Part shown: piece by piece, positions 37,796-39,162 of the stretch
Layout of the letters: every line of letters starts with the position of its first letter
How positions within the stretch are numbered: the stretch's first letter is position 1
NCBI GenBank assembly: GCA_910579865.1
Contig: CAJTXA010000028.1
Span: 462 to 43,063, forward strand
Direction of reading: 5' to 3'
DNA length: 42,602 bases
Origin: an uncultured Lachnospiraceae bacterium
GTDB taxonomy: Bacteria > Bacillota > Clostridia > Lachnospirales > Lachnospiraceae
The notes under the pieces: generated by a model
What the model was told of the DNA's origin: nothing
The model's database searches: none
What the model saw: only the letters and a program-made list of their open reading frames with translations
Position numbers and translations under genes: made by a program

Positions 37796-38911
37796 TTATG
37801 GCTGCATCAACTCTGCTACCCGTCCCATCATATCACAATATTCTTCATAGGATTTATATTTTAAAAATAAATCAATATTTTCCTGCATTAACATAGATCT
37901 TTGAAAATTTGCAATATCCTTTCTAATACAATTATATCGATAAGTATAATCCAATTTTATCATTTTTAATGATTCTGCATAGGACAATCCAGTTGGAAAG
38001 TATAATCCCTTTGTTGACTTTCCTTTAAAGCAAGAATCATGATCAAACAATGGATATAATGAATGCATTTTTCCATTCCAAACTAATACACCAAAATTAT
38101 CTCTATTTCGATCCGTATTTAATGTAATATAATCCAAAATATGCATTTTTAAAAATCCAATAGGATCAATCTGCATATATTTTAAATAAGGCAATCCATT
38201 ATAAGTCATAAGATTTGTGTCATAAAAAGACATCATATCCCGATAGGGAACTAACTCTAATATTTCTGATGTTTTTATTTGGCATACAGCACAATCTCTT
38301 CCATTTACTTTTGAATAAATATAACGACTGCATGGTATATTTAAAAATCTAGCCAAATAATATACAATAATTTCTGATAAAATTTCTTTTATTTTTTCAT
38401 ACTTTACCAAAACAATTCCTTTTGAAGTGCGAACAAAACACTTTGCCCGAATTCCTTTGCTTGTTAATTCTCCTGTATAGATTCGATCTCCGATTGCATC
38501 ATTTTGATTGATATCTTCTAAATTTCCTGTTAGAGCAACATCTGCTATCTTCAGTGAAAACTCATTTTTATAAAGATTTACTTTCTCCCATGTTTCCGCT
38601 GAATATTTTGAACAAATCCAATAGTTATCTCGAAAGCTAAGTGCCCTACTTAAGATACAAATATTTACATCACTTTGATCATCAATCCCACAGGAAACTA
38701 AAATTTCTTTACAATATTCACGATTTGTCATTAACATTCGATCCGAACAAAAACTAATAATCATCCCATAATCTCTACGATTTTTTATTGATACTGGTAT
38801 CAATTCACTATCAAAAACTTGAACCGTCTTCCTTTTTGTATCAAATTGAAGTACAATCTCATCTTTATATTTTAAATAATACTCGCTTTCTAAGAACTCT
38901 CTTTCTCCCAT
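37796..38911 (-). CDS. Type II phosphatidylinositol 4-kinase-like (PI3/PI4-kinase superfamily) protein
   Basis: 371 aa. The catalytic-loop region HILDYITLNTDRNRDNFGVL matches PI4KII-alpha LDYIIRNTDRGNDNWLI. FVRTSKGIVLVKYEKIKE matches PI4KII FVKDPQGRIIAVFKPKNEE (ATP-binding Lys region). A DHD motif (LFDHDS) resembles the DFG-like metal-binding motif. Confidence 0.55.
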   Translation of the reverse strand: MGEREFLESEYYLKYKDEIVLQFDTKRKTVQVFDSELIPVSIKNRRDYGMIISFCSDRMLMTNREYCKEILVSCGIDDQSDVNICILSRALSFRDNYWICSKYSAETWEKVNLYKNEFSLKIADVALTGNLEDINQNDAIGDRIYTGELTSKGIRAKCFVRTSKGIVLVKYEKIKEILSEIIVYYLARFLNIPCSRYIYSKVNGRDCAVCQIKTSEILELVPYRDMMSFYDTNLMTYNGLPYLKYMQIDPIGFLKMHILDYITLNTDRNRDNFGVLVWNGKMHSLYPLFDHDSCFKGKSTKGLYFPTGLSYAESLKMIKLDYTYRYNCIRKDIANFQRSMLMQENIDLFLKYKSYEEYCDMMGRVAELMQP

Positions 38912-38922
38912 AAATTATCCTT

Positions 38923-39162
38923 TTACTGAATTTTATGTTTTGTTTTATATTGCTCCCAATTTTTTATTGCATCGTCTTCTGTTTCTCCCCCAAATTCTTC
39001 ATTAATTAAAGCAATGATATATTCTAACATCTCTTCTTTTATTCTTGTTTCATTACACTGGTTCAGCCGTTCTGCCTGCCTTCGTATAAATTCTCCATCT
39101 GGCAAAGTGTCATCATCTAAATCTGCTAAGGCATCACCCAATTCTAAATCTTGAAACATCAT
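38923..39162 (-). CDS. Hypothetical small acidic protein (79 aa)
   Basis: ORF between the Nudix gene and the kinase-like gene, rich in D/E residues. No known motif. Confidence 0.35.
   Translation of the reverse strand: MMFQDLELGDALADLDDDTLPDGEFIRRQAERLNQCNETRIKEEMLEYIIALINEEFGGETEDDAIKNWEQYKTKHKIQ

Follow-up and report, generated by a model that had tools for sequence, protein, structure and literature searches.

A divergent HipA-type kinase of Lachnospiraceae and its newly described small acidic companion, a probable inhibitor

Persistence toxins have their founding example in the HipA-type kinases, a diverse group that is classified according to the gene of the controlling partner. Here we describe a two-gene locus of an uncultured Lachnospiraceae bacterium in which a divergent kinase of this type is encoded next to a small acidic protein. 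The locus lies within a 42,602-nucleotide stretch of DNA (GenBank assembly GCA_910579865.1, contig CAJTXA010000028.1, positions 462 to 43,063 of the forward strand; hereafter the window), and is considered chromosomal because the window otherwise carries chromosomal housekeeping genes, encoding for example PolA, RuvB, a penicillin-binding protein/FtsW fusion and an Fe-hydrogenase. The kinase gene (37796..38911 including the stop codon, minus strand) specifies 371 amino acids (aa), and a gene immediately 5' of it in the same orientation (38923..39162) encodes its putative inhibitor or antitoxin, a helical protein of 79 aa from an orphan family. They are separated by an 11-nucleotide (nt) spacer (38912..38922, minus strand), and a Shine-Dalgarno-like AAGGA can be read in the sequence seven nt 5' of the kinase ATG. 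An earlier note, made by a model from the letters of this DNA, had delimited both open reading frames (ORFs), each with an ATG start, and had quoted a catalytic string, LDYITLNTDRNRDNFGVL, and a Lys region, CFVRTSKGIVLVKYEK; the ORFs are as it gave them, and the two strings occur at aa 259-276 and aa 158-173 of the kinase. Both genes are genuine rather than chance ORFs, as the kinase has 150 homologues at E ≤ 0.001 and the small protein is represented by 41 cluster representatives among 1.84 billion proteins.

The kinase family is poorly annotated and narrowly distributed. The 120 homologues listed from the database search reach E ≤ 2e-81 and are mostly 350-390 aa long; all of their named sources are Lachnospiraceae, and most lack annotation, one relative being labelled "type II toxin-antitoxin system HipA family toxin" by NCBI. 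Genomic context was studied in 38 genome loci, together with contigs for four homologues, which derive from metagenome-assembled genomes or isolates of Lachnospiraceae save for one labelled Eubacteriaceae and one labelled "uncultured bacterium". Collections of phages and plasmids yielded relatives at 23-29% identity only, among them relatives on Helicobacter and Campylobacter plasmids, and contained no member of the Lachnospiraceae clade. The clade is divergent and found almost only in Lachnospiraceae, and its nearest characterised relative, judged by sequence, is CtkA of Helicobacter pylori.

Conservation of the kinase was assessed by aligning 36 homologues, which share 40-93% identity with the window kinase. 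K157, K170, E172, E176, E180, D267, N272, D290, H291 and D292 are invariant, as is a block of N-terminal residues. The Gly-rich, P-loop-like motif T146-GELTSKGIRA-K157 (38441..38476, minus strand, as for all features of the two genes) contains the invariant G147, G153 and K157, and also Thr150, a candidate autophosphorylation site that is not universal, being replaced by Met in one partner-less clade. By eye only, T150-S-K-G153-I-R-A-K157 with K170 resembles S150-V-A-G153-A-Q-E-K157 with K181 of Escherichia coli HipA. Lys170 (codon 38402..38404) is the predicted ATP-binding β3 lysine and the putative equivalent of HipA K181; in the structural model it lies in a strand (165-171) that is followed by a helix (174-189) carrying the invariant E176 and E180. 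The catalytic loop, DYITLNTDRNRDN (aa 260-272; 38096..38134), includes the catalytic Asp267 and Asn272, and D260, Y261, L264, N265, D267, R268, N269, R270 and N272 are invariant within it. The Mg-binding motif D290-H291-D292, equivalent to the "DFG" of other kinases, maps to 38036..38044. Alignments with HMMER and hhalign pair D267, N272 and D290 with D309, N314 and D332 of HipA, and an Asn occupies the position of HipA His311. Since every catalytic residue is invariant, the possibility of a pseudokinase was rejected. The catalytic domain that the earlier note proposed, of the protein-kinase-like/PI3-4K superfamily, is upheld, including the conserved catalytic Asp and Asn on which it had made the proposal depend. 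As a separate observation, five cysteines (C55, C85, C207, C210 and C294) are each at least 90% conserved in this alignment; C207 and C210 form a CxxC, C294 directly follows the Mg-binding motif, and together they could be a metal or redox site.

Family databases place the kinase poorly. The window protein exceeds the threshold of no Pfam family, its sole match being PI3_PI4_kinase over aa 255-318 (E = 0.05, 13.9 bits against a cut-off of 27.1), and it has no match in NCBIfam. PI3_PI4_kinase is matched by 27 of the 36 family members (best E = 1.7e-6) and HipA_C, below threshold, by 10 of them, the window kinase not included. The best match in the defence libraries is PADLOC PDC-M03A (aa 149-295, E = 7.8e-10). 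PDC-M03A is the HipA component of PDC-M03, a candidate defence pair in which the second protein has a HIRAN domain (PMC13245101); the counterpart of this pair in the classification by Gerdes et al. is the hipIN type (PMC8262856). A family profile searched against the sequences of the PDB recovered H. pylori CtkA best (E = 2.9e-5), over aa 169-288, from helix αC to the Mg-binding motif; PI4KIIβ followed at E = 0.039, aligned over "FerlviLDYiirNtDRgnDNw" alone. When the family was compared with E. coli HipA (MG1655) by hhalign, the catalytic region alone was aligned, with a probability of 28%.

An AlphaFold model of the kinase was obtained with a mean pLDDT of 93.9, and its best structural match is E. 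coli HipA (22.4, over 319 of the 371 residues), followed by Shewanella HipA (18.7, 306 residues), CtkA (17.0, 209 residues), HipT (13.9, 214 residues) and PI4KIIα (12.8, 190 residues). Foldseek gave HipA at E ~1e-9 with TMq of 0.59-0.65, against TMq of 0.43 for CtkA and 0.40 for PI4KIIα, so that HipA ranks first by two methods and PI4KII is not the closest structure. Full-length HipA aligns over about 110 residues more than the core-only kinases do, and the N-terminal ~130 residues of the window kinase are therefore assigned to the HipA N-subdomains; the region spans approximately aa 1-135 (38507..38911), its boundary being approximate. As modelled, the protein has the full HipA architecture, N-terminal subdomains and core kinase, with an intact active site. 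The earlier note had also likened it to HipA and CtkA, and the two comparisons, structural for HipA and sequence-based for CtkA, bear this out.

The small protein belongs to a tiny family, comprising 39 clusters in a set of 5.8 billion proteins besides the representatives counted above. Apart from one marginal match of 853 aa (E = 2e-4), its members are 59-127 aa long, and no convincing fusion to another domain occurs, indicating a stand-alone protein. It is acidic, as the earlier note had said, with an isoelectric point of 4.25 in the window and 4.3-5.7 in the loci examined. Searches of Pfam, NCBIfam, PADLOC and PHROGs, and a Pfam scan of 29 members, returned nothing consistent. Conservation is concentrated in a C-terminal core (aa 40-78; 38929..39045), defined by alignments and by BLAST matches from distant loci, which span these same residues; the last 40 residues carry the motif K/R-E-x-A-K-x-E-(I/M)-L-x-Y ... 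W-x-x-Y-K-x-K-H. In two alignments Trp69 (codon 38956-38958) is the sole invariant residue, and Y48, Y72, K73 and H76 are conserved in at least 90% of sequences. AlphaFold models the protein entirely as helices with moderate confidence (pLDDT 67), and such moderate order in a model is typical of proteins that fold upon binding. Library scans and the model revealed no similarity to helix-turn-helix (HTH), ribbon-helix-helix, HipS, HIRAN, Stl or resolvase proteins. The protein is not HipS-like; HipS mimics the β-rich N-subdomain-1, which this kinase already contains. Both modes of inhibition known for Hip kinases involve a partner Trp inserted into the kinase, Trp65 in the case of HipS and a C-terminal Trp in that of HipB (PMC10627512). 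Because both known modes of inhibition share this feature, it is plausible by analogy that the invariant Trp69 is an inhibitory anchor.

The association of the two genes was examined by searching a hidden Markov model (HMM) of the partner in six-frame fragments of each locus, and the 35 loci with enough upstream DNA were counted. In 21 of these loci, which represent 8 of 12 kinase clades, the kinase gene is immediately preceded by a partner homologue in the same orientation, the interval between the two ranging from -22 to +51 nt. When genes within 4 kb of the kinase were clustered, the partner was the sole specific recurrent neighbour, the next clusters being generic histidine kinases and ABC ATPases. 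This conserved adjacency supports the suggestion of the earlier note that the kinase and its D/E-rich neighbour are partners. In a neighbour-joining tree the partner-bearing kinases are scattered across the 8 clades, so the pairing is ancestral and has been lost at least five times. Pairwise distances of partner and kinase are strongly correlated over 45-93% identity (Mantel r = 0.82, with 0 of 5000 permutations as high), as expected for a co-inherited unit; the shared species phylogeny contributes to this value too. The flanking genes differ between kinase clades. Two close, co-directional genes that are inherited together in contexts varying between clades represent the generic layout of a type II toxin-antitoxin (TA) system.

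From its fold, architecture and active site we are highly confident that the 371-aa protein is a HipA-superfamily Ser/Thr kinase, its predicted activity following from these features. It is best seen as a divergent gut-bacterial relative of the HipA persistence toxin rather than as a kinase of lipids, and the small acidic protein that accompanies it, which had not been described before, is probably its inhibitor. In the mechanism that we propose, the partner would bind the kinase and hold it inactive, its C-terminal helices and Trp69 docking on the kinase much as the tryptophans of HipB and HipS do. Were the partner lost or displaced, the kinase would phosphorylate an essential cellular protein, and growth would be slowed or stopped. 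By analogy, an aminoacyl-tRNA synthetase or another translation factor may be the target, and autophosphorylation of the Gly-rich loop (Thr150/Ser151) may make the activity of the kinase self-limiting. For the reading as a whole, an active HipA-superfamily Ser/Thr kinase in a TA-like two-gene unit with an acidic partner, we find as much reason for belief as for doubt. Control of the kinase by a small acidic partner of a new kind, within a TA-like pair, is advanced tentatively, with slightly less assurance.

Several observations weigh against such a unit. No partner homologue occurs within +/-6 kb of the kinase in 14 of the 35 loci, including whole clades, yet the catalytic residues are all kept there; at least five independent losses are unlike the behaviour expected of the indispensable antitoxin of a lethal toxin, and a partner missing in about 40% of loci departs from the generic type II pattern, in which the antitoxin is always found with its toxin. 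The usual type II autoregulatory arm is missing, since the partner lacks a DNA-binding domain and a HipB-like HTH gene is not conserved nearby. The family profile matches HipA marginally (E = 0.11), which places the kinase family outside the published Hip tree by sequence, and the window protein falls below all Pfam and NCBIfam thresholds. The distribution of the partner can also be explained if the protein is a non-toxic, lineage-specific signalling Ser/Thr kinase in the manner of E. coli HipH/YjjJ, which is monocistronic; the small protein would then be an optional substrate, adaptor or activator instead of an antitoxin. Monocistronic Hip kinases are known (PMC8262856), many of the loci are flanked by ordinary chromosomal genes, the strongly conserved N-terminal domain suggests a fixed and specific cellular substrate, and confinement to one bacterial family fits a lineage-specific regulator. 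We nevertheless consider this account, the main rival, less likely: the tight spacing or overlap of the two genes and their co-inheritance over a wide range of divergence are what an obligate pair typically shows, the genes around the kinase change from clade to clade, one relative lies amid toxin-type genes, and the characterised toxins HipA and HipT block growth by phosphorylating aminoacyl-tRNA synthetases (PMC8262856).

In the window the two genes are preceded, likewise on the minus strand, by the gene of a Nudix hydrolase (39299-39757; E = 2.3e-16 to Pfam NUDIX) and by an ORF of 851 aa (39799-42354). The earlier note joined all four into a functional module of Hsp70-like protein, Nudix, acidic protein and kinase; acting together, they might form, for example, a nucleotide-centred defence system. 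All four are transcribed in one direction with short gaps between them, in the window and in relatives of at least 90% identity, the Nudix protein matches the PADLOC candidate PDC-S07 (E = 9.5e-15), and no strong promoter was found before the small gene by promoter and terminator scans, whose counts equalled those of shuffled sequences. The module is nonetheless very improbable. The 851-aa protein occurs in 1 of the 12 kinase clades (≥90% identity), BLAST places the Nudix gene next to the kinase in those same loci only, and elsewhere the contexts are unrelated. The Hsp70 identity could not be confirmed, as the 851-aa ORF has no sequence match in Pfam or the PDB. A stable hairpin separates the Nudix gene from the small gene: a perfect 12-bp inverted repeat, AAGTTCGCTTGC / GCAAGCGAACTT, with a 10-nt loop lies just past the Nudix stop codon (39238..39271, minus strand), and the fold of the RNA from 39225 to 39300 has an energy of -23.7 kcal/mol (z = -5.2; 0 of 200 shuffles as stable). 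Lacking a canonical T-run and not called by the terminator scan, the hairpin is not a textbook terminator; it may be a boundary between transcripts, or an attenuator, ahead of the two genes, and whether it forms part of the kinase/partner system is uncertain. By eye, the 851-aa ORF shows the ASKHA-like motifs GIDFGTKST and DFGGGTTDF; its relatives (75-80% identity) are 850-1533 aa long, with a K/E/Q-rich N-terminus very variable in length, and in that lineage the Nudix gene always follows the 851-aa gene.

The catalytic loop had suggested a type II PI4-kinase, and part of that resemblance stands: it is measurable, as given by the Pfam match above, but weak and local, and PI4KII is not the nearest relative. 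The loop wording NTDRNRDN is nearer to NTDRGNDN of PI4KII than to ATDGHAKN of HipA, PI3_PI4_kinase is matched by more family members than HipA_C, and PI4KIIβ is within reach of the family profile, all of which would agree with a PI4KII-like lipid or small-molecule kinase. The likeness, however, spans only some 30 residues, the N-terminal domains are HipA-like and the structural ranking favours HipA; no membrane-association feature was noticed on reading the sequence, for which no dedicated search was made. A plasmid relative of 29% identity has a plain DRHxxN loop and HipA_C as its best match, so the PI4KII-like wording is a local variation within a HipA/CtkA-type lineage, a local feature inside the shared PI3/4K-HipA superfamily, and a lipid or small-molecule kinase is very improbable indeed. 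A secreted effector like CtkA was also considered and found no support, no search for secretion signals having been made.

Other features of the kinase neighbourhoods were recorded. Downstream of the kinase, Pfam identifies an L-rhamnose mutarotase (rhaM) and a DUF2828/DUF7788 protein. In four relatives of 93% identity (loci L007-L010) the DNA between the kinase and rhaM, at ~11100-21100 of the locus, is an insertion hot-spot just downstream of the kinase, its cargo being an AAA_14/DUF4143 ATPase gene in three loci and, in another, an HTH gene with IS605 OrfB/TnpB and a type I restriction-modification system; the window itself has no such insertion at this site. A 48%-identical kinase and its small partner (locus L004, 1-17116) lie amid a long co-directional run of toxin/immunity-type genes that encode Fic, two HipA_C proteins, DUF3990, YpsA, a microbial PARG, Polbeta-NTase with HEPN, and an FtsK-like protein, a region that looks like the accessory part of a mobile element. 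In one partner-less clade (loci L001 and L018), a 207-aa protein with a match to Pfam Phage_P4_cII is encoded 30 nt downstream of the kinase (L001, 9144-9767), and might be an alternative partner there. A distant relative of the kinase (family HMM E = 7e-46, DRHxxN loop; locus L050, 1230-3670) is found on the Clostridiaceae plasmid CP026601.1, where it directly follows genes for a ParM-like actin and an acidic 98-aa ribbon-helix-helix protein. As its gene follows that of the ParM-like actin, the 98-aa protein is probably the ParR partition adaptor, and it was set aside as evidence of an antitoxin; on this plasmid a HipA/CtkA-type kinase is attached to the partition locus.

Two vault/Ro-type components are also encoded in the window. 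An 811-aa protein (576-3011, minus strand) matches Pfam MVP_shoulder (E = 5.5e-21) and, weakly, Vault_3, and adjoins a 596-aa actin-like ATPase (3030-4820, minus strand) with PilM_2, FtsA and MreB matches; such a major vault protein (MVP)-like protein is unusual in a Lachnospiraceae chromosome. The 520-aa DUF2828+DUF7788 protein mentioned above (35106-36668, minus strand) is related to von Willebrand factor A proteins of the TROVE/Ro60 type, matches phrog_850, "RNA-binding protein" (E = 1.5e-128), and is conserved in close relatives; its gene lies 32 kb from the MVP-like gene.

The locus adds to the Hip kinases a divergent clade that searches seeded with HipA sequences would miss and whose members are mostly annotated as hypothetical proteins, together with a partner family that has no known domain. 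The gain is incremental rather than conceptual and unsurprising in principle, and should be of moderate interest to specialists in phage defence, persistence and TA systems. Should the partner prove to be an inhibitor, it would represent a third, independent way to silence a Hip kinase, after HipB and HipS, and would offer a handle on growth-arrest or defence systems of the abundant gut Lachnospiraceae, in which TA biology is barely explored. A bolder proposal, possible but held with marked reserve, is that the 79-aa protein is the first member of a new class of Hip-kinase inhibitors (stand-alone, acidic, helical, Trp-anchored and not DNA-binding), and that the pair is an eleventh Hip-type organisation, specific to gut Lachnospiraceae, with a possible role in phage defence or commensal persistence. 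Were this so, repeated loss of the partner would mark lineages in which the kinase has been tamed or re-wired.

How, then, does the pair compare with known systems? PI4KIIα/β share its kinase superfamily and a near-identical catalytic loop, (L/I)DY(I)xxNTDRxxDN, but the likeness is limited to the core and to a short run of sequence, and PI4KII lacks the HipA-type N-terminal domains of the window kinase. CtkA (JHP940) of H. pylori is the best PDB match by sequence profile; in contrast to HipA it aligns over the core kinase only, about 210 residues, and it keeps the canonical DRHxxN loop. CtkA is described as a secreted kinase that translocates into host cells rather than an intracellular one controlled by a partner, and to our knowledge no homologous small partner of it has been described. 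HipA of the hipBA systems of E. coli K-12 and Shewanella oneidensis shares the aligned catalytic Asp, Asn and Mg-binding Asp and a small gene immediately upstream, and by eye its Gly-rich loop with Ser/Thr resembles that of the window kinase. The window kinase differs from it in having about 11% identity, some 70 fewer residues and the loop TDRNRDN instead of TDGHAKN, and the upstream partner, being acidic, all-helical and devoid of an HTH, cannot act on DNA as HipB does. By the measures of Gerdes et al. (PMC8262856), the protein has the HipA core kinase fold, the catalytic motif and the Mg2+-binding motif of a Hip kinase; it has no significant similarity to the HipA, HipT or HipH seeds, and the gene adjacent to it in 21 of 35 loci encodes neither an HTH nor a HipS-like antitoxin. 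Ten Hip organisations have been published, in which the partners are HipB or another HTH protein, HipS, HipS-HIRAN, Stl-like or resolvase-like proteins, or none (PMC8262856), and the acidic partner matches none of these types. It differs from HipS and HipN, the β-rich homologues of HipA N-subdomain-1, in being an unrelated helical protein beside a kinase that holds its own N-subdomains, and library scans found neither a HIRAN nor an Stl-like nor a resolvase domain, nor a third gene encoding an HTH protein. What the pair does share with HipT/HipS of hipBST, and with the clade XI Hip kinases (HipI/HipN, the PADLOC PDC-M03 pair), is a small non-DNA-binding protein encoded beside the kinase. In those systems that protein is the inhibitor, and HipS acts through a conserved Trp wedged next to the Gly-rich loop (PMC10627512).

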